NCBI GenBank assembly: GCA_963708185.1
Contig: OY970195.1
Coordinates: 1 to 64,000, forward strand
Source: Candidatus Peregrinibacteria bacterium
GTDB taxonomy: Bacteria; Patescibacteriota; Gracilibacteria; UBA1369
Length of the DNA stretch: 64,000 nucleotides
Direction of reading: 5' to 3'
Shown: piece after piece, positions 514 to 53,548 of the stretch
How positions within the stretch are numbered: the stretch's first letter is position 1
Layout of the letters: each line of letters opens with the position of its first letter
The notes under the pieces: generated by a model
What the model was told of the DNA's origin: nothing
Seen by the model: the letters and a program-made list of their open reading frames with translations, nothing else
Database searches by the model: none
Position numbers and translations under genes: made by a program

Positions 514-1857
514 ATGAAAAAACGTTTTTTACCTCTAGAAACACCCGCAGACGAATCATCCATTCTTAAAAAAACGAAAGGGAAAAAGGGTCCTTCCGGC
601 AAAAAGGATGAGTTTCTGGTCGACGATAAAATTCTGGAAGCTCTCATGGAAAAACTTTTCGTCGACGCCGCGAATTCACCGTACGGCAGGGTTGATGGAT
701 TTGATTTCAGCAGTTTGCACGGATTGAGTCTCGAAGAGGCTTTTCTCCGCTATCCGAAACTTCTGGAAATCATGGATGACGTCATTATCCGCGTGAACAA
801 AGTCGTTTCGAATGCCATGGAATATGCCGTCCACGAAAAAGAGTCGGCCGAGCACGGACGAAAAAACGCACTGCTTCTGAAAAGGTTCGGCAATCTTTTT
901 TTGAGGAACGGACATTTGCCCCAGGCGCTTAAAGCGTTTGAAGGGGCATTGCATTTTTTGGCTGACGAAGGAGAAATTTACACATTGATGGGTGACGTCT
1001 ACGTGATGATGGGTGATCTTGAGAAAGCGTTGTTCTGTTACGGAGAAGCGCGGCAGTCTCTTGAGGACGACTTTGTGGTTTCAAGAAAACTTGCCGATGT
1101 TCATGTAAAATTTGCCGAAGGATTTTTTGGTTCCGATAACGGGAAAGCCGTTCAGTGTTACGAGCAGGCGCTCCAATGTATCGACGGGTATCCTCCCGCG
1201 ATGAGCGGGCTGGGTGAGATCGCGCTTTTGGAAGGCGATTGTGACACCGCGTTGGAAAATTTCGAAAAGGTTCTTGATCGCGATCCCAGCAATGTCCGCG
1301 CGCTCGTCGGATTTGCCAACGCTCATTCTATGTCCGGCAATCTTGATGAAGCCGATGCACTTTTCCGTGAAGCCATCACCCTGAATCAGTTTTATCTTCC
1401 CGGACTGTACAACTACGCAAGCTTTCATTTTTATTCCACGAAGAATTTTGTCCAGGCCAGGGTTTATATTGATCGCGCCGCAGGATTGGATCCACGGAAT
1501 GTGGAGATACTCCTCCTTAAGGTGGAGATCGCCATGGCGATGAAAGATTTCGATTCCGCCGAGAAAGCCGTTGAGGAGGTGCTGGTGCTCGATCCCGGCA
1601 ACAAAGAAGCTTTCAGTTTTTTCTGCAGACTCAAAAACGGTGAGTGTTTTCTTCCGGAAAATTATATGTCCTCGTTCCAGGCCGTGAAGGTCGAGCGTCA
1701 GGCGTCTTCACGGGATCTTTTTTATTCGTTGAAAAACTTTCAGCGGCTCAACAACGCACGGACATTTGACCGTTACGTCAACGAGGTCTCCAGGGACCAG
1801 CAGGACCGCTTCAGCAGGTTTCGTTCCAAATACGACGGACCTACTTTTCTGAACTAG
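514..1857 (+). CDS. TPR-repeat protein
   Basis: 447 aa with about 7 TPR-like units (e.g. AMSGLGEIALLEGDCDTALENFEKVLDRDPSN; ALVGFANAHSMSGNLDEADALFREAITLN). Confidence 0.85.
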   Translation: MKKRFLPLETPADESSILKKTKGKKGPSGKKDEFLVDDKILEALMEKLFVDAANSPYGRVDGFDFSSLHGLSLEEAFLRYPKLLEIMDDVIIRVNKVVSNAMEYAVHEKESAEHGRKNALLLKRFGNLFLRNGHLPQALKAFEGALHFLADEGEIYTLMGDVYVMMGDLEKALFCYGEARQSLEDDFVVSRKLADVHVKFAEGFFGSDNGKAVQCYEQALQCIDGYPPAMSGLGEIALLEGDCDTALENFEKVLDRDPSNVRALVGFANAHSMSGNLDEADALFREAITLNQFYLPGLYNYASFHFYSTKNFVQARVYIDRAAGLDPRNVEILLLKVEIAMAMKDFDSAEKAVEEVLVLDPGNKEAFSFFCRLKNGECFLPENYMSSFQAVKVERQASSRDLFYSLKNFQRLNNARTFDRYVNEVSRDQQDRFSRFRSKYDGPTFLN

Positions 1858-4564
1858 GTTTCAGGAATTTCTGCAGATTATCTTTCGATCCGTACTCGAT
1901 GCGGATGCCTTCCGGCAAAGCTTCAAGGAACTGATGGCCGTATTTTTTCTGAACGATGCGGGTGTCGAGGACGATGATGGTTCCGGTGTCTTCGCTGCTG
2001 CGGATGAGACGGCCGAAGCCCTGTTTAAACTTGAGAATGGCTTTGGGAAGCTGGTATTCGTTGAAGGGATCGGAATATTTTTTGGAACGGGCTACGATCA
2101 TGGGATCGTTGGGGGGATCGAACGGCAGTTTCTGGATGACGACGCAATTGAGATCGTTGCCGCGGAGATCCACTCCTTCCCAGAAGCTCTGCGTGCCGAA
2201 GATGGCCGAGGTTTCAGGTTCATCCTTGAAATGTTCGACGATCTTGCCGCGACCTCCGCTGATCTGCTGGGCAAGGACGTTAATGCCTTCTTTTTTGAGT
2301 TCGGGTGCGATCTGATGGTATGTGGCCGACAGCGCTTTTTTCGCCGTGAAGAGCACAAGCGTCCTGCCGCCGTTGGCCTTGATGATGTTTTTGATAAGCT
2401 TGGCGCAGCTCATGAAATATCCTTCGGTCGCCGGTTCGGGCAGGTCTTCGGGGATAAGGATCTTTACCTGGTCGGGGTATGAAAAATGTGAGGGGAGATG
2501 GGTCTCTTCGAAACTCTGGTCTAGCCCGAGCTGGTCGCGGATGAAGTTGAAGGTGTGATCGGTGCGTAGGGTGGCGGACGTGAGGATGATGCTGGATTTT
2601 TGATTCCAAAGAACGTTCGTCAGCAGCGGGCCGACGTCAACGGGGGAGCGGCGGATGGTGATGTTGTCTTCGTAGGTTTTGTTGATCCAGGTCATCTGGT
2701 TGAAGGTTTCTCCTTCGCTTTGGAGGACGGACTGGAGGTCCGCGAGTTTTTTTTCGCATTCGTACATGTAGCCTTTGACCTCTTTCCATGGCACGCTGTT
2801 TTTTTCCGGCGCCGCTTCATGGATTTTCGAGAGTTGTTCCATGAGTTCTCTCGCGGAATCGGAAACGGTTTTCCCCGCATCTCTCGTCTGGAGCCATTCT
2901 TTGCTCATCACGTCGGCGTCGGAGAGGTTGAGCTGGCTGTAGAACTGGCTTTGGCCGAGATGTTTTTCCAGGAAAATTCCGGCGAGGCCGAAGAAAATGT
3001 CGATGCGGCCGACGAGATGTTCCGTGGTTTTTCGTGCGGACTGGATTTCATCGAGGACGGAAGCCTCCTTGATGAAACGTCCGAGGACGTCGAGACTTTT
3101 CTTGAGTTTCTCGAACGGACGTTGGAAAGAATGGAACGCCAGAGCTACGGTGAAGGCGTCCGTTGCAACCTTTTCCAGATGGTGGGCTTCGTCGACGATG
3201 AGGTCGTCGTATTCCGGAAGAATCGGGTTTTCGGCGTTGCTGTCCTGCAGCAGCAGGGCGTGGTTGACGATGACAATATCGGCGTTCATGGCTTTCTGGC
3301 GGGCTTTCATCAGGTAGCATCCGTTTTTGAATTCCGGATCGTCGTGGGAGCAGGCGTATTCGGCGCAGCAAATTTCATCGAGCAGTGAATACTCTTTTCC
3401 CACGAAAGTGAGTTCGTCGAGGTCACCGGTCTGGTCGCTTCCGCTTGAAGACGACATCCCGCTTGAGCTCGAGCTGCGGGTGAGCCAGAGCAGAATCTTA
3501 ATGATGAGCGTGGTTTCGACGTCGTCAAAAGCATCTTTCATCATGAGCAGTTCGAGCCGTTTGTAGGAAAGATAGTTTCTGCGGCCTTTGACCAGGGCGA
3601 TTTTGAAAGCCGACGGCGCGATGAGTTTTTCAACCAAAGGAACGTCTTTTTTCAACAACTGTTCCTGGAGATTGTGAGTGTAGGTCGAGATGACGATTTT
3701 TTTGTGCTGTTTGAGGGCGTAGTGGACTGCAGCCATAAGATAGGCGAGCGTCTTGCCCACGCCCGTACCGGCTTCAATAAGTCTTTTTTTGTCCTGTGCA
3801 AAAGCCTCCAAGATCAGCTCAGTCATGTGCTGTTGGCTGGGGCGGGTTTCGTAGCTTTTTACGATCTTTGCAAGTTTTCCTTCAGGACTGTAGGTCGCCA
3901 GGAGTTCTTCGGCGCTTTGTTCGTACGGCGCTGCTGCGATGTCTTTTGGAAATGCGGATGAATGTTCTTTTTTTGGTGCCGCCGGGGTTTCGGTTTCAAG
4001 AAAAATTTCGCGAAGGTGCCAGGTGCTTCTTTTGAGAATGGTCTGGATTTTTTTGAGCGTCGTCCCGTCGATCTCATGGATTTTTTCCTGAAGGATGAGG
4101 AAAAGTTTGTAACAGGCGACCGTGTCCGACATGGCCCGGTGTTTCTGGTCGTGATGCAGTTTGAGGGTGCGGCCAAGCGTGTCGAGGCTGTACGAAGGGA
4201 GTCCTGGAAGGAGTATCATGCTCAATTGGAGCGTGTCGTAGAGCGGTCCGGTAATGCTGACGCCTTTTGCTCTCAAAAAATTCACGTCAAAATCGATGTT
4301 ATGGCCCACGATGGGAGCATCGCCAATAAACGCTTCAAGTTTTTCCCTGAGCGATTCGAGTGTCGGAGCTTCGGCAACGTCCTGGTCCTTGATCCCGGTA
4401 ATATGGGTGATGATATGCGGGATGGGGATTTGGGGATTGATGAAGGTTTCAAAAGTATCGATGATTTTGTCTCCTTCGAACTTTACGGCGGCTATTTCAA
4501 TGACCTGATCTGTTCTGGGATCGAAGCCGGTACTTTCAATATCAAGAGCGATGCACGTTTTCAT
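1841..4564 (-). CDS. dinG: DnaQ-family 3'-5' exonuclease fused to DinG-family helicase
   Basis: N-terminal DEDDh motifs (LDIESTG, GHNIDFD, HRAMSD), Walker A EAGTGVGKT, DEAHH, SFWEGVD and KQGFGRLIRS. Confidence 0.92.
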   Translation of the reverse strand: MKTCIALDIESTGFDPRTDQVIEIAAVKFEGDKIIDTFETFINPQIPIPHIITHITGIKDQDVAEAPTLESLREKLEAFIGDAPIVGHNIDFDVNFLRAKGVSITGPLYDTLQLSMILLPGLPSYSLDTLGRTLKLHHDQKHRAMSDTVACYKLFLILQEKIHEIDGTTLKKIQTILKRSTWHLREIFLETETPAAPKKEHSSAFPKDIAAAPYEQSAEELLATYSPEGKLAKIVKSYETRPSQQHMTELILEAFAQDKKRLIEAGTGVGKTLAYLMAAVHYALKQHKKIVISTYTHNLQEQLLKKDVPLVEKLIAPSAFKIALVKGRRNYLSYKRLELLMMKDAFDDVETTLIIKILLWLTRSSSSSGMSSSSGSDQTGDLDELTFVGKEYSLLDEICCAEYACSHDDPEFKNGCYLMKARQKAMNADIVIVNHALLLQDSNAENPILPEYDDLIVDEAHHLEKVATDAFTVALAFHSFQRPFEKLKKSLDVLGRFIKEASVLDEIQSARKTTEHLVGRIDIFFGLAGIFLEKHLGQSQFYSQLNLSDADVMSKEWLQTRDAGKTVSDSARELMEQLSKIHEAAPEKNSVPWKEVKGYMYECEKKLADLQSVLQSEGETFNQMTWINKTYEDNITIRRSPVDVGPLLTNVLWNQKSSIILTSATLRTDHTFNFIRDQLGLDQSFEETHLPSHFSYPDQVKILIPEDLPEPATEGYFMSCAKLIKNIIKANGGRTLVLFTAKKALSATYHQIAPELKKEGINVLAQQISGGRGKIVEHFKDEPETSAIFGTQSFWEGVDLRGNDLNCVVIQKLPFDPPNDPMIVARSKKYSDPFNEYQLPKAILKFKQGFGRLIRSSEDTGTIIVLDTRIVQKKYGHQFLEALPEGIRIEYGSKDNLQKFLKPSSEK

Positions 4565-4591: not shown

Positions 4592-4759
4592 TTAGGGAAG
4601 TCTTTGAAGGTTCAGGCTTCTGACTTTGAGTTCAAGCTTGTGAACGGATGAATGTTTGCGGCCCTTGAAAGAGTTTTCCACCAATCCGAGGTTCTGGAGA
4701 TAGTCCTGGATGGCTTGATAGAGTTGTTGCTGGCGCAACTGCGGTGATCTTCTGGTCAT
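4592..4759 (-). CDS. small hypothetical protein (55 aa)
   Basis: Manual ORF MTRRSPQLRQQQLYQAIQDYLQNLGLVENSFKGRKHSSVHKLELKVRSLNLQRLP*. It lies between a consensus promoter and dinG and is below the ORF-track cutoff. Confidence 0.55.
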   Translation of the reverse strand: MTRRSPQLRQQQLYQAIQDYLQNLGLVENSFKGRKHSSVHKLELKVRSLNLQRLP

Positions 4760-4789
4760 TGGCGCGTGCTTAGGAAGTATATCAATTTC

Positions 4790-4818
4790 AGTATAGGTGA
4801 GTATATACTCACCGTCAA
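4790..4818 (-). promoter_or_regulatory. sigma70 promoter with perfect 18-bp palindromic operator in the spacer
   Basis: Minus strand reads TTGACG-N17-TATACT. The spacer region forms the palindrome GGTGAGTATATACTCACC (4796-4813). Confidence 0.75.
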
Positions 4819-4939
4819 GAAATTTTGTTTCGTGAGGTTTCTTGTAGAATTTTAATTTTTTTAATTGCGGTGAAAAGCCAATAATTTCGCTGTTTTTTTA
4901 AATTATAAAATACTTTAGTAATCTTCCAATGCCTAAAAT

Positions 4940-4967
4940 TTGCGTAATAGATTTTTTTTGATATGAT
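4940..4967 (+). promoter_or_regulatory. promoter of putative ncRNA
   Basis: TTGCGT-N16-TATGAT with an extended -10 (TGn). Confidence 0.55.
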
Positions 4968-4971
4968 TATC

Positions 4972-5534
4972 TGAAACCTCGGAGTTGGAAAATCAATCTT
5001 CCTTCTTAACATCTGGACATTCTGGAGTTTCAAAAAACAAAAACAAATGGTTCCTTAAAAAAACATAAAATAAAATATCTGCAGAGATTGATGGGAAGGT
5101 GAACTGGTTGCCTCAGGAGGATCAATGTCCTCCGTAAAATCTTCACAACCTGGTCAGGAGTGATGGAGTACCAACGCCCTAGAACTTTTCACCTTCTCTC
5201 TGCCTCTACAGGTCGCGTTCGCTTCACTGCGACACGTCGCCTTAGCTCAGGCTATATATGCTCGGTAATGGCACTTGCGGATGACTTCCGCTCCTGCCGT
5301 TCACAGTTGTCCGGTGTCCTTCGTTTGTTCCTTCGGGAGCCTCAGGATACGCCAAACGGACGGTGGCTGGCCCCACTGGAAAAATAAGCCGAAACCCAGC
5401 ATATATACGGGCTCGTCAGCCTTCAAACAAATTCCAAAAACAAAAATACCTTGAGTTCTCACAAATTTTTCTTTCCCTGAGAACCCATAAGGACCGGAAT
5501 TTCACCCCGCTACCCGTTAGCGGGGTTTTCTTTT
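4972..5534 (+). ncRNA. putative large structured ncRNA, family not recognised
   Basis: Many nested complementary segments, a C(UUCG)G tetraloop, A-rich linkers, an upstream promoter and a downstream intrinsic terminator. No convincing ORF. Confidence 0.65.
5504..5534 (+). terminator. intrinsic terminator
   Basis: Stem ACCCCGCTA/TAGCGGGGT followed by TTTCTTTT. Confidence 0.8.
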
Positions 5535-5541
5535 GTCCGCG

Positions 5542-5577
5542 TAAAAAAAGGGAGCTTCTCGAAGCTCCCTTTTTTTA
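5542..5577. terminator. bidirectional intrinsic terminator (ends the SLH gene)
   Basis: A7-GGGAGCTTC-TC-GAAGCTCCC-T7. Confidence 0.85.
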
Positions 5578-5602
5578 CCGGTGAATTTTCCGAGAAGTAT
5601 TT

Positions 5603-8062
5603 TTAGTAGACGTTCGGTCCGGTTGTCTGTTCGGTGCCCTGCTGGGTGTAGTCGATCGGACGTAACATGCCCGGTTGTTGGACGTCCCCGCCTGAAGGAG
5701 CTGATCCGAATTCGAGGTCGCGGAGAAGCTTGATGATCTTGGACGCTTCGGCGCGGGTAATGTTGCGGTGGGGTTCGAACCTGTCGGCACTTACGCCCTG
5801 GACCAATCCGTCAGCGTAGGCTGCGTGGATGGCGTTGGTGAACCAGTCGCCTGACGAAACGTCGCTGAACCGGGTGAAGTTGGCTACCGGGCTGACGTCT
5901 TTGAGGCTCGCGCTGACGTTGTAAAGAATCTGGACGGCTTCGGCGCGGGTAATAGGATCGTCGGGATGGAAGGTGCCGTCATTGTAACCGGTGATATATT
6001 TTTCCGATGCCGCGGCGTTGATGTACTGGGCGTACCATACTGAGGTGTCGGCCGGAACGTCTTTGAAGTAAGCGGTGGTTCCGTCGTAGTTCGGGGTGTA
6101 GGTCATGTCTTCGGCTTCCATGACCATCTTGATGAATTCGGCACGGGTGATGGCATTGCCGGGACGGAAGCATCCGTCACTGTAGCCGCTGATGATGTAG
6201 TCTTTGGAGAGATCGTCGACATAAGGTTTGAACCAGTCGGTCGAGCGGACGTCGCAGAAGGTTTTCGGAGTGGGCACGTACTGGTAATTCTGTGCGGACT
6301 GTTCCACCTGGAAGGCGTTCTGGAACAGTTCACCGTATTTTTGGAGGCCGGCAATGTCCACGTTGACGGAACCACTGCCCCACACGGTGTCGGAGGTGGC
6401 GGAACCGGTTTCGTACACGTCGTGCCATGGATCAAGAAGTCCGTTGATGAACGTTGAGACGTCACTCGGCGCGCTGAGAAGATCCATGAGCATTTTGGCG
6501 TAATCGTGGATGCTGTCGAAACTGACGTATCCGACGCCGGCCATACTTTGATTCGGAACAAAAGCCTGGCTGAACGTGGCGTTATTGAGCATGCCTTTGC
6601 CGTCCAGCGTATAGGCGTCGTTGACGTTCGGGGAGGTGGTGATGACAAGCAGTCCGTCCGTCGTCACCGCGGCGTTCACGGTGAAGAGCGTTTTGTCACC
6701 GGGCAGACTTTGCATGAGGGGATCGGCATCGGGTGATTTGCTCGGATCGAACGTGAGATGGTAGTAAGCGGTGCCGTTCGAAGTCACGATGCTGCGGTTG
6801 TAGAAGTCGACGCCGCTGTCTTTTTCCATGGCGTTGAAGGTTTTATCCACGTAATCCACCAGCTTGACGAGAACGGTGCCGGCCTTGCTTTGCATGGTCC
6901 TGACGTCCACGACCAGTGTCGCCGCCGGGTAGATTTGATCGGTTTTATGGAAGGACATGGCGTATTTCCCCTGAAAGAGAGGAAGCAGGTCTGCGTCGAA
7001 GTCCAGTCCTGAATCCGCTTTGAAGTTGTTTTTCCAGGCGGTGAAATCGGAGTTCGCCTGGGCGTCGTTCACGATGAATTTCATGAAATCCTGCACTTTG
7101 CCCTGCAGGTTGTTCCCTTCACCGAAGATCATCACGTTGTTGCTGTTGATGTATCTGTAGAGTTCAGGAATGAAGTTGTAGCGGTCAAAGGAGAGGTTGA
7201 GTTGTTTGAGTTTGGCATCATCGCCTTTGACGACCACACTGAAGTTGAAACCGGTATCGGTCTCACCAACGCTGATGCCCTCGGCGTTGAGAGCCGCCAT
7301 AAGGTCTTTTTCTGCTGAAAGGAGATCTCCGAGTCCAAGCACTTGTGAAGCATCTACGCTGTTTTGATACATGCTCGGGTTAACGTACATGTTGAGGAAG
7401 CTTCCCGGGAGGTCTTTCGAGCGGACCGCCATGTAGCCGTCGGTCTGTGCGAGCGGGGTGCCGGTTTTTTGCGTGTACATGTCGAGAAGTCCGGTCATGC
7501 GGTCCTCTGTGCCCGTTACGACAACCAGATCGCCGATCATCGTGATAAAGGTATCTGAAGAAGGACTGTAGACGGTCATGTTGTCCACGGTCGTCACGGT
7601 TGTGTCGGTCGGAAGCAGGCTGACGAGTGTCGCGTAATCATCAGAGGTCATGTGCATGGAAGCGTAATTTTCAGGTGAAGGATATGTGTACGCGGATGAA
7701 TAGGATGTCGCTGGTTCGGTCATCATGACGTTCTTGGTGGCAACGGTGAGTTTGTTGTTTGCGAGTTCTTTGTTGAGGATGTCTTTGAGCGTGGCGGTGT
7801 CCTGGTCAGACATACCGGTGATCCCGCCGTTGGTGAACTGTTCGATAAGCGAACTGAAGTCGTTGTTGAACGGATTGGGCGCTCCGGTGTTGAACTCAAC
7901 AAGCTGGTCGATGTCCGAAGGTAGAAGCTGTGCCAGTTCCACGTGAGCGGTTGGCGGTGGGTTTTGCGTTGCCGTCTGTGCGGAAGCGACGTTGACGAAC
8001 GATGCCCCGTATATGGCGAGCATGCTTAAAGAGGCAACAATTTTGTTGGTGTGTTTTTCCAT
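5603..8062 (-). CDS. secreted protein with three C-terminal SLH domains (DUF3352-like N-terminal region, tentative)
   Basis: Signal peptide. SLH motifs FCDV..DWF..GYSDGCFRPGNAITRAE, GYNDGTFHPDDPITRAE and FEPHRNITRAE. Confidence 0.85.
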   Translation of the reverse strand: MEKHTNKIVASLSMLAIYGASFVNVASAQTATQNPPPTAHVELAQLLPSDIDQLVEFNTGAPNPFNNDFSSLIEQFTNGGITGMSDQDTATLKDILNKELANNKLTVATKNVMMTEPATSYSSAYTYPSPENYASMHMTSDDYATLVSLLPTDTTVTTVDNMTVYSPSSDTFITMIGDLVVVTGTEDRMTGLLDMYTQKTGTPLAQTDGYMAVRSKDLPGSFLNMYVNPSMYQNSVDASQVLGLGDLLSAEKDLMAALNAEGISVGETDTGFNFSVVVKGDDAKLKQLNLSFDRYNFIPELYRYINSNNVMIFGEGNNLQGKVQDFMKFIVNDAQANSDFTAWKNNFKADSGLDFDADLLPLFQGKYAMSFHKTDQIYPAATLVVDVRTMQSKAGTVLVKLVDYVDKTFNAMEKDSGVDFYNRSIVTSNGTAYYHLTFDPSKSPDADPLMQSLPGDKTLFTVNAAVTTDGLLVITTSPNVNDAYTLDGKGMLNNATFSQAFVPNQSMAGVGYVSFDSIHDYAKMLMDLLSAPSDVSTFINGLLDPWHDVYETGSATSDTVWGSGSVNVDIAGLQKYGELFQNAFQVEQSAQNYQYVPTPKTFCDVRSTDWFKPYVDDLSKDYIISGYSDGCFRPGNAITRAEFIKMVMEAEDMTYTPNYDGTTAYFKDVPADTSVWYAQYINAAASEKYITGYNDGTFHPDDPITRAEAVQILYNVSASLKDVSPVANFTRFSDVSSGDWFTNAIHAAYADGLVQGVSADRFEPHRNITRAEASKIIKLLRDLEFGSAPSGGDVQQPGMLRPIDYTQQGTEQTTGPNVY

Positions 8063-51998: not shown

Positions 51999-52325
51999 TT
52001 AAGCCGCCTGGAGCATCTTGATTTCGATGTCGACGCCGGCAGGGAGACTTAGGTTGGTAAGTGAGTCAATGGTTTTTGGGGTGCTTTCGGTGATGTCAAT
52101 CAGTCTCTTGTGTGTTCTCATTTCAAATTGATCGCGAGCATTCTTGTGGACAAAGGTCGAGCGGTTGACCGTATATTTTTCAATCTTTGTCGGGAGAGGA
52201 ATGGGGCCAGCTACAATCGCACCAGTTCTTTCGGCCGTTTCGATGATCAATCGGGCTGAATCGTCTACGACTTTGTGGTCGTAGGCCTGAATCTTGATGC
52301 GGATTTTTTGTTTAGCTGCTGCCAT
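51999..52325 (-). CDS. rpsJ: 30S ribosomal protein S10
   Basis: [17 protein letters not shown] and [13 protein letters not shown]. Confidence 0.98.
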
Positions 52326-52363
52326 TTCGGATCAATAAGTTAAGGATCGGGAGAGAACAGGAA

Positions 52364-53548
52364 TTATTCAAGAACCTTGGTAACAACACCTGAACCGACC
52401 GTGCGTCCACCTTCGCGGATAGCAAAGCGGGTACCTTCATCAAGAGCGATCGGAGCACCGAGCTCGATGTTCATCTTGAGGTTGTCTCCAGGCATAACCA
52501 TTTCAACGTTTGCAGGAAGCTCAATGGAACCGGTGACGTCCGTGGTTCTAATGTAGAACTGAGGCTTGTAACCCTTGAAGAAAGGAGTGTGGCGTCCGCC
52601 TTCTTCTTTCGTAAGGATATAGACTTCGCCTTCGAATTTCGTGTGAGTCTTAATGGAACCCGGCTTGGCAAGCACCTGCCCGCGGACGATGTCTTCACGT
52701 TCAACACCGCGGAGGAGCAGCCCGACGTTATCACCTGCCTGACCCTGATCGAGGAGTTTCTTGAACATTTCAACACCAGTCACGACAACTTTGCGTGTCG
52801 GGAGGATACCGAGAACATCAACTTCATCGTTGATCTTCACGATACCGGTTTCAATACGGCCAGTAGCAACGGTACCGCGGCCTTTAATGGAGAATACATC
52901 TTCGACAGGCATAAGGAACGGCTTGTCGAGATCGCGGACAGGATCCGGGATGTAGCTGTCCAAAGCGTCGAGGAGTTCCTGGATGCATTTGGTAGCTTCA
53001 GGATCCGTAGGATTTTCCATGGCCTTGAGAGCGGAGCCGCGGATGAAAGGGGTCTTGTCAGCATCGTATCCATACTTCTTGAGGAGTTCCTTTACTTCCA
53101 TTTCTGAGAGTTCAGCAATTTCAGGATCAGCCATGTCCATCTTGTTCATGAAAACAATGATGTACGGAACGTTCACCTGTTTTGCAAGGAGGATGTGTTC
53201 ACGGGTCTGAGGCATCGGGCCGTCAGCTGCGGAACAGACGAGGATGGCGCCGTCCATCTGAGCGGCACCTGTAATCATGTTCTTCACGTAGTCGGCATGC
53301 CCCGGACAGTCGACGTGGGCATAGTGGCGTTTGGCGGTTTCATATTCCTGGTGGGAGGTCGCAATGGTAATACCACGCGCCTTTTCTTCAGGAGCGTTAT
53401 CAATTTCATCGTACTTGCGGGCTTTGGCCATACCTTTGTTCGCGCAGTACATGGTGATGGCTGCGGTTAAGGTCGTTTTACCGTGGTCGACGTGACCGAT
53501 CGTACCCACATTGACGTGAACCTTGTTTCGATTAAATACTTCTGCCAT
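52364..53548 (-). CDS. tuf: elongation factor Tu
   Basis: [17 protein letters not shown] and REGGRTVG. Confidence 0.99.

Follow-up and report, generated by a model that had tools for sequence, protein, structure and literature searches.

A predicted family of large, structured noncoding RNAs in Peregrinibacteria

Background

Large, intricate bacterial RNAs of unknown function are rare (OLE, ROOL, GOLLD, raiA), and each of them has opened new biology or revealed a new RNA architecture. OLE genes are adjoined by oap genes, ROOL and GOLLD are frequently borne by phages or prophages and show a patchy distribution, and the raiA motif, about 200 nt long, occurs in Bacillota and Actinomycetota. Two further kinds of RNA are relevant for comparison, namely 6S RNA, a rod-like helix of ~185 nt with a central bubble, and the CrcZ-type RNAs, which use repeated single-stranded A-rich 'CA' motifs. 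For ROOL and GOLLD, the structural report describes loop-loop contacts as central and the particles as oligomers made of RNA only (PMC12286853). As to the candidate phyla radiation (CPR), a literature search found nothing on noncoding RNAs (ncRNAs) beyond the universal ones, and the papers retrieved for Peregrinibacteria, Gracilibacteria or Patescibacteria together with "ncRNA" or "noncoding" describe no RNA like the one reported below (supplementary motif lists lay outside this search). The Peribacteria genome paper reportedly applied Rfam to rRNA only (PMC4736985).

Here we analyze a region of a Candidatus Peregrinibacteria bacterium genome, which represents one of the groups of ultra-small bacteria. 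The window, i.e. the whole stretch of DNA that was analyzed, comprises the first 64 kb of a single-contig genome of 1.437 Mb that is 99% complete (G000 in the coordinates below). At ~4973-5534 on its plus strand, within a gap of ~840 nt separating two minus-strand genes, the window contains a single-copy standalone gene for a highly structured ncRNA of ~560 nt, the transcript of which is predicted from the DNA. An earlier note, based on the letters of this DNA alone, had proposed at this place a standalone large ncRNA of the OLE/ROOL size class, possibly new. That the RNA is genuine, standalone and structured, and that it founds a new family, we regard as hardly open to doubt.

Results and discussion

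Structure and conservation of the RNA

None of the 4227 models of Rfam 15 matched any part of the 64-kb window at its gathering score, and this library presumably includes OLE, ROOL, GOLLD, raiA, HEARO, group I and II introns, riboswitches and ribozymes. A permissive scan (E<=10) of 4700-5700 reported 30 sub-threshold matches, none of them credible on either of the two main domains of the RNA (A and B, see below); the best one (29.2 bits against a threshold of 49.5 bits) falls on the terminator hairpin. The second copy of the RNA in the same genome (the type-2 paralog, see below) likewise lacks a match to any Rfam family. The plus strand of 4960-5545 is predicted to fold with -176.4 kcal/mol (z = -4.73, 0 of 100 shuffles as good), compared with z = -3.03 and 1 of 100 shuffles for the minus strand. 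The RNA is assigned to the plus strand because its conserved G-U pairs (in the domain B alignment, one pair is G-U in 50 of 50 sequences and another U-G in 35 of 50) would become A-C mismatches on the opposite strand.

Domain B (5259-5401) is the conserved core, on which both of our covariance models (R1 and R2) are based. For 15 sequences aligned with MAFFT (5257-5403), RNAalifold predicted 36 pairs, of which 22 exhibit compensatory changes; among the 51 sequences (50 distinct) collected with R1, 27 of the 36 pairs change on both sides. Standard pairs occupy 93.5% of the cells in the 50 sequences; sliding the 3' partners by 1-3 columns lowers this proportion to 34-41%, and none of 500 shuffles came up to the observed value on any of five measures. 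The domain is closed by the outer helix UGCU.GGU / ACC.AGCA and comprises the P2 hairpin (5268-5298, with the loop UGAC at 5282-5285), the long P3 hairpin with a UUCG cap (5309-5361) and the covarying P4 hairpin (5362-5366/5373-5377, within 5362-5377), connected by the conserved junction strands UUCACAG and GGAAA...GCCGAAA.

Two tertiary contacts are associated with this core. In the first one, a pseudoknot spanning 5368-5391, the P4 loop UGGC (5368-5371) pairs with GCCG (GCCR in the family) at 5388-5391 of the 3' junction strand. In the close set it is almost invariant, 99.0% of its 200 cells being paired; in a diverse set of 22 sequences 93.2% of the cells are paired and one pair is C-G in 11, U-A in 6, A-U in 2 and something else in 3 cases, with 8 compensatory cells where shuffling gives 2.6 on average (a count of 8 was reached by none of 500 shuffles). 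The second one involves the K hairpin (5409-5422), located just 3' of domain B, whose loop (GUCA, 5415-5418) and the UGAC of the P2 loop have complementary sequences; we propose that the two loops form a kissing contact, either within or between molecules. This was assessed mainly by an alignment-anchored test on 76 of 83 sequences, the remaining 7 having been left out for lack of the anchor. The core positions G-C, A-U and C-G are paired in 75, 76 and 74 of the 76 sequences, while the flanking position covaries (C-G 36, U-A 21, U-G 5) and is paired in 63 of 76, where shuffling gives 50.1 on average (none of 5000 shuffles reached 63). An automatic hairpin-anchored version of the test, in which several anchors were mis-placed, gave 5.12 for own versus 4.80 for cross combinations, with 1 of 2000 shuffles as high.

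Upstream of the core, domain A (5081-5203) is closed by a long helix formed by 5081-5086/5198-5203 and 5093-5103/5187-5197, and it carries the conserved unpaired motif GCCCUAGAAC at 5176-5185. Across 15 sequences, 10 of the 14 pairs predicted for this helix vary in a compensatory manner. The closing helix is also present in 19 type-2 paralogs, in 3 of which the motif CCCUAGAA recurs. The apical part of domain A is variable and contains a window-specific insertion at ~5113-5165. Between domains A and B there is a lineage-specific spacer (5204-5258) with a GTCGC/GCGAC hairpin in the single-sequence fold; it is absent or much shorter in relatives from the genus, and within it GCUAUAUA constitutes a genus-specific extension of the outer helix of domain B. 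The insertions at ~5113-5165 and ~5210-5249 possess hairpins of their own, are specific to this genome and are absent in four relatives from the genus; they show at which positions the fold tolerates additional helices.

Two analogies with the translation machinery were examined. A mimicry of Shine-Dalgarno (SD):anti-SD pairing by the domain A helix appears to be coincidental, given that the 3' end of the 16S rRNA is canonical and that the domain A strands covary freely. With regard to the genome itself, the 16S rRNA 3' end reads GGATCACCTCCTTTCT, and a survey of 1187 putative starts, using rough gene starts (the first ATG of a long open reading frame, ORF), identified only 66 in which GGAG, GAGG or AGGA, taken as SD-like cores, lie between -20 and -5, i.e. 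what looks like a largely SD-independent regime of initiation. Mimicry of translation leaders by the A/C-rich segments is a weak idea, retained as no more than a remark: an A/C-rich heptamer is found at only 71 of the 1187 starts, and of the 96 genomic sites of ACAAAAA[CT]A 14 lie upstream of the first ATG of a long ORF at a distance of no more than 60 nt, versus ~6% expected.

The 3' domain (5423-5503) contains the A/C-rich tract AAACAAAUUCCAAAAACAAAAAUA and three covariation-supported elements: the helix AAAUUCC 5429-5435 / GGAAUUU 5496-5502, the helix CCUU 5449-5452 / AAGG 5489-5492, and a hairpin (5455-5461/5478-5484) with the conserved CCAUAAGG. In a MAFFT alignment of 14 sequences 88.8% of the cells are paired versus 22-56% in slid controls, and 10 of 23 pairs exhibit compensatory changes; the local CCUU/AAGG pairing varies on both sides in relatives (UCUU/AAGA, GCUA/UAGC). 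The A/C-rich single strand persists throughout the family: of 82 loci, 62 have the motif ACAAAAA[CT]A on the 3' side of domain B, no more than 90 nt away.

The 5' end of the RNA is predicted at ~4973 from the position of a putative promoter recognized by eye, which comprises a weak -35 element TTGCGT (4940-4945), a 16-nt spacer and a -10 element TATGAT (4962-4967); -10-like hexamers (TATGAT, TACAAT, TATAAT) align at the latter site in relatives from other genera. A hairpin follows at 4972-5032 (minimum free energy fold, alignable within the genus only), the place of which is taken in relatives from other genera by a variable hairpin and an A-rich linker. Next come the A/C-rich single strands 5033-5048 and 5058-5078, around the conserved GUUCCUU at 5050-5056. 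At the other end, the terminator scan identified an intrinsic terminator (5504-5534) consisting of a G+C-rich stem of 9 bp (5504-5526) and the U-run TTTCTTTTGT. Terminators of the homologs occupy the same location and are each followed by a U-run, while their stem sequences differ.

Pairings within this region had been read off the DNA in the earlier note, all of whose motifs we found where they had been placed. Its plus-strand assignment is borne out by the conserved G-U pairs and the plus-strand terminator; that the RNA has a terminator of its own had also been proposed there. Compensatory pairs are abundant in domains A, B and the 3' domain, and they support several helices proposed there: GCAGAG/CTCTGC and GGAAGGTGAA/TTCACCTTCT (the domain A closing helix), the TGCT/AGCA core of TATATATGCT/AGCATATATA, GTGTCCT/AGGATAC, the UUCG-capped hairpin, and GTTCTCA/TGAGAAC of the 3' domain. 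GCGGA/TCCGC is retained with weaker support (only two of its pairs are in the model, with 67% of their cells paired), and in GTTGTCCG/CGGACGGT the 5-bp core covaries, whereas the three outer wobble pairs are displaced by the P4 hairpin. GGTTG/CAACC, GGAGGA/TCCTCC and GTCGC/GCGAC sit in the two insertions and derive from the single-sequence fold alone; judging by homology, GGUUG more likely pairs with CCAAC 5171-5175. A long-range closing helix, GGTTCCTTA 5049-5057 / TAAGGACC 5488-5495, is not supported, for AAGG 5489-5492 pairs with CCUU 5449-5452 and the 5' element does not covary along with it. The linker 5424-5448, thought to be unpaired, is so in part, as AAAUUCC 5429-5435 pairs with GGAAUUU 5496-5502. 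The proposed promoter has a plus-strand TATGAT with a weak -35 element and -10-like hexamers in relatives on its side, but the consensus scan calls none on this strand. What this work adds to that model are two tertiary contacts (pseudoknot and kissing loops) as well as a second paralog, all of which it had lacked.

Paralogs and distribution

Model R1 matched the genome twice, at the window copy (type 1) and at 905377-905514 (86 bits), and nhmmer profiles confirmed exactly two copies. The second, type-2 copy (G000:C1:~905190-905660, plus strand; ~1390-1860 of the excised locus L061) is diverged from type 1 and has identical parts in identical order, terminator included; its single-sequence fold has z = -5.47, and a near-consensus promoter TTGACC-17-TATCAT precedes the same CUGAA start region. 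The shared order of parts is a 5' hairpin, an A-rich linker, domain A with GCCCUAGAA, the pseudoknot-locked domain B, the loop-complementary hairpin, a single-stranded AAAACAAAAA(C/U)AAA tract, a 3' hairpin and a terminator. Two diverged paralogs are found in many of the genomes. About 50 nt past the type-2 terminator we found a tRNA-like 3' fragment with a T-arm, the 3' strand of the acceptor and CCA (L061:1905-1958, i.e. G000:C1:905704-905757, plus strand). It is matched weakly by the tmRNA model (15.8 bits), is called neither tRNA nor tmRNA by ARAGORN, and may be the remnant of an integration site.

Of 40 relatives searched with BLASTN, 20 carry the RNA region, among them 18 of the 24 that belong to the same family. 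Model R1 detected it in 35 of the 36 genomes of the taxonomic family (the present one included), often twice, in 64 of 151 genomes of the order (which we take to be Peribacterales in GTDB), whereas this narrower of the two models gave no match in a phylum-wide sample with 150 genomes besides the present one. The broader model R2, built from 22 diverse members, found the RNA in 116 of 151 genomes of the order, representing 17 of 19 families, and in 27 of 151 genomes of the class. Since 14 of the latter belong to other orders, the limits of the family have not yet been reached.

When one genome per GTDB species was scanned with a degenerate pattern, 83 stretches were reported and 80 of them were taken further as loci, of which 61 have a model match with E<=0.01 and 56 of these score at least 31 bits. 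With one exception, the contigs of these 56 loci are titled Peregrinibacteria, Peribacteria, Gracilibacteria, Altimarinota, Patescibacteria or "bacterium", so the earlier guess that the DNA came from a CPR organism holds. The exception (L108, JAJRSV010000182.1, 14 kb, from a metagenome-assembled genome titled "Bacteroidetes bacterium") is a full-length member with 74.8 bits for R1 and 92.5 bits for R2, most likely on a mis-binned Peregrinibacteria contig. The 19 loci without a model match come mostly from unrelated phyla, as chance predicts for the pattern, and a collection of viral genomes (IMG/VR) gave one pattern match that scored 18 bits with R2, which we attribute to chance; a viral origin was therefore rejected.

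In some genomes of two families (f6 and f17) two copies lie on the same strand only 1.3-2.7 kb apart (G104:C1:245844-246000 and 247156-247312; G040:C2:49488-49646 and 52209-52366; G063:C1:90550-90707 and 93285-93443), and in G104 both copies score the same. Such an arrangement points to a tandem duplication of recent date, in contrast to the ancient split between type 1 and type 2. The near-universal, syntenic distribution in one or two copies within the order, together with the fact that no gene adjoins the RNA in all lineages, indicates that the family is vertically inherited in Peregrinibacteria and related CPR of the class Gracilibacteria.

Function and alternative explanations

The RNA has its own terminator, is positioned tail-to-tail with the next gene with no downstream gene on the same strand, and adjoins no gene common to all lineages. 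We therefore propose that it acts in trans, as a folded particle, and would be neither an mRNA leader nor an antisense RNA. Domain B with its pseudoknot and loop-loop kiss would form a rigid core, the invariant junction nucleotides of which may serve as a binding surface, while the flexible A/C-rich single strands might dock a single-strand-binding protein or a U-rich RNA. The outcome would be a ribonucleoprotein scaffold or a sequestering RNA; for either of these specific mechanisms, suggested by anatomy, our support is tentative. As a whole, combining the odds of a new ncRNA with those of a scaffold, this explanation is the best we can offer, and we assign it a probability of roughly 0.6.

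Several observations weigh against it. The promoter, the ends of the RNA and its abundance were all deduced from the DNA (a search of sequencing runs matched 21 runs, 0 of them recorded as RNA, with 0.21 of the words found in the best DNA run), and the consensus promoter scan reported three sites, all on the minus strand, and none at the RNA on the plus strand. The covariation shuffles take no account of how closely the sequences are related, and the counts are biased in favor of the model by the fitting of alignments A2 and A3 to it; alignments A1, A5 and A6, which were not so fitted, give the same picture. The kissing contact depends mainly on one covarying position, and an unanchored longest-duplex test returned no signal (own mean 6.37 versus cross mean 6.29). 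R2 found no match in two families of the order, f15 (0/16) and f5 (0/3). The neighbor clusters are specific to lineages and paralogs, and because no gene is consistently adjacent, the scaffold idea is supported by anatomy and by comparison with OLE, 6S and CrcZ. Finally, among possible partner proteins, Hfq is undetectable in the genome (best match 12.3 bits, E 0.19), and a role as an Hfq sponge was rejected on this ground.

An unlikely alternative to the trans-acting scaffold is a quaternary assembly made of RNA only, in which the UGAC and GUCA loops would pair between molecules to form homo-oligomers or type 1/type 2 hetero-oligomers. Both loops are kept in both paralogs and covary, the two paralogs are maintained across families, and ROOL, GOLLD and OLE are reported to form homo-oligomers (PMC12286853). 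Covariation, however, is blind to the difference between intra- and intermolecular contacts, and one and the same helix of 7 bp has the P2 loop as well as the K hairpin next to it, from which an intramolecular kiss appears geometrically feasible; moreover, many genomes show a single copy only, and the loop pair of the type-1 RNA studied here amounts to just 4 bp. We also speculate, as a long shot, that the two paralogs could be subunits of a ribonucleoprotein or RNA-only machine that defines the Peregrinibacteria, joined by the covarying loop contacts and performing a core task. If true, this task would be handled differently than in other bacteria, e.g. the handling of envelope or membrane-protein mRNAs or of ribosomes in cells without a detectable signal recognition particle (SRP), and this RNA would constitute a new functional class, not another regulator.

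A ribozyme or metabolite-binding RNA, with the domain B junction and the GCCCUAGAA motif as the active site or ligand pocket, is rather improbable. It would account for highly conserved unpaired nucleotides within a pseudoknotted multi-helix junction, and the size and complexity of the RNA resemble those of known large ribozymes. Nonetheless, the RNA resembles none of the ribozyme and riboswitch families in Rfam, lacks a gene downstream on its strand that it might regulate, and has no evident conserved processing site.

The genomic neighborhood bears on a further possibility, namely that the RNA is a cis-acting regulatory element tied to a convergent envelope gene, that of the SLH protein for type 1 and of the MscS channel for type 2, or that it is carried by a mobile element or prophage in the manner of ROOL and GOLLD. 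In the window, the minus-strand gene of a DinG-like exonuclease-helicase (1841-4564) and a 55-aa minus-strand ORF without a Pfam match (4592-4759), situated between that gene and the RNA, lie on one side, and a minus-strand gene for an SLH/DUF3352 surface protein (5603-8062), positioned tail-to-tail with the RNA, on the other (ORF list, Pfam). Type 1 is tail-to-tail with an SLH/DUF3352 gene in 15 loci and lies downstream of a DinG-like gene in 9, while type 2 is tail-to-tail with members of one gene cluster in 17 loci, 4 of the 4 tested members of which contain MscS domains; the member adjoining the type-2 copy in this genome has no Pfam match. Profiles were used to test the SLH/DUF3352, DinG-like, MscS, F420-ligase-like and Na/Ca exchanger neighbors; the others were named by eye and resemble housekeeping genes. 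The conservation of the convergent neighbor and the tRNA-like fragment after the type-2 copy are what such an explanation has in its favor. On the other hand, the RNA ends at its own terminator ahead of the stop codon of the neighbor, other lineages have other neighbors, the type-2 copy of this genome lacks a recognizable MscS gene alongside, and the distribution fits vertical descent, with the lone 18-bit match in the viral collection. We consider this explanation very unlikely.

Two side observations concern the same intergenic region. Upstream of the RNA, the consensus scan places its three minus-strand promoter-like sites at 4929-4902, 4876-4849 and 4818-4790, on account of which the A+T-rich segment 4800-4970 is probably a site of divergent promoters. 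Downstream, between the terminator of the RNA and the SLH stop codon (5603), a perfect palindrome of A-tract, hairpin and T-tract (AAAAAAAGGGAGCTTC..GAAGCTCCCTTTTTTT, 5543-5577) probably terminates the minus-strand SLH gene and may act bidirectionally.

We also considered whether the RNA is a very divergent housekeeping RNA (SRP RNA, 6S RNA, RNase P RNA or tmRNA) missed by the Rfam models, an explanation which is barely tenable. Its main attraction is the lack of detectable SRP RNA and 6S RNA in a single-contig, 99%-complete genome: RF00169 has no match in the genome even at E<=10, RF01854 has none either, and RF00013 (6S RNA) matches neither the genome nor the region. However, RNase P RNA (RF00010, 175.6 bits, 185828-186179) and tmRNA (RF00023, 123.6 bits, 1209539-1209952) are encoded elsewhere, and ARAGORN found no tRNA and no tmRNA in the window. 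The protein partners of an SRP RNA, Ffh and FtsY, are undetectable, as neither the SRP54 M domain (PF02978) nor the SRP-type GTPase domain (PF00448) was identified in the genome; a tblastn search with E. coli Ffh gave a best E-value of 0.45, versus 1e-11 to 1e-58 for three proteins of the same E. coli locus that served as controls. Neither the 151 genomes of the order nor the 151 of the phylum sample gave a match to PF02978, and the matches to PF00448, which occurred in 100 phylum genomes, were weak (up to 26 bits) and almost all confined to the P-loop end of this profile. As these zeros span the phylum, they show no correlation with the new RNA; they may reflect a limit of the search tool, from which the tblastn result for this genome stands apart. 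The sole SRP-like string, CCUGGUCAGG (5149-5158), which we take to resemble 4.5S RNA, is inside the window-specific insertion; on this ground, and because Ffh and FtsY are undetectable, identity as SRP RNA was dropped. The branched, pseudoknotted fold with two paralogs is unlike the rod shape of 6S RNA, and the permissive Rfam scan gave no SRP or 6S match.

That the region is no RNA gene at all, being either a protein-coding stretch (ORF 5160-5387 or another of the several ORFs of 44-75 aa that overlap it) or chance structure in a long intergenic spacer, has practically no probability left, because the compensatory changes in the helices refute it, the insertions and deletions map to hairpin tips, and no overlapping ORF with conserved frame and strand was found among the 15 loci. 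ORF 5160-5387 and ORF 4815-5033 have no Pfam match; the former lies partly inside an insertion missing from the closest relatives and has no conserved counterpart among 14 homologous loci. Stop-to-stop ORFs of at least 90 aa that overlap the RNA differ in strand and frame among the 15 homologous loci, with none conserved, and the sole link among overlapping ORFs is one two-member BLASTP cluster within the genus.

The proposals of the earlier note on the nature of the element thus came through well: Rfam reports no family at gathering score, and the novelty stands; hallmarks of tmRNA, RNase P, SRP and 6S RNA, which it had not seen, are indeed lacking, with RNase P RNA and tmRNA encoded elsewhere; ORF 5160-5387 does not represent a conserved protein; and the view of a standalone large ncRNA, possibly new, is supported by the Rfam negatives, the covariation and the ORF test together.

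We argue for an important role, since 116 of the 151 genomes sampled from the order have retained the RNA although they are only ~1 Mb in size, and since it is duplicated. The covariation support is about as good as a computational candidate allows. With its mapped pseudoknot and kissing loops the RNA is a target for cryo-EM and biochemistry, and it can serve as a marker gene for the annotation of genomes of the Peregrinibacteria group.

Comparison with known RNAs

The RNA constitutes a new family with no detectable relative, and by its general character it belongs with OLE, ROOL and GOLLD to the loosely defined class of large ornate ncRNAs: it exceeds 400 nt, is composed of multiple domains, covaries, has conserved unpaired nucleotides and is not an mRNA leader.

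Among these, the OLE RNA of Bacillota, which is ~600 nt long, multi-domain and conserved, with many invariant unpaired nucleotides, and which is chromosomal and vertically inherited, is similar to the new RNA in all these respects; OLE is reported to work as a ribonucleoprotein of unresolved function. Unlike OLE, the new RNA has no match to the OLE family of Rfam, belongs to a CPR phylum and comes as two paralogs per genome, and no adjacent operon encoding oap-like membrane proteins was seen. With ROOL and GOLLD it shares the character of a large ornate RNA of unknown function, and one copy of the new family precedes a tRNA-like fragment; it differs from both by the lack of an Rfam match, by its syntenic and near-universal occurrence in one order and by not being found in the viral collection.

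The standalone, terminator-ended RNAs 6S, CrcZ/CrcY and CsrB bind RNA polymerase, Hfq/Crc and CsrA, respectively, whereas for the new RNA protein binding is only proposed. Its conserved AAAACAAAAACAAA tracts look similar to the A-rich motifs of CrcZ. It is distinguished from this group by the lack of a 6S match, by an undetectable Hfq, and by a large pseudoknotted core that the sponges lack. Finally, the raiA motif RNA is a widespread structured ncRNA with its own promoter and terminator, as predicted for the new RNA, which differs from raiA in having no Rfam match.

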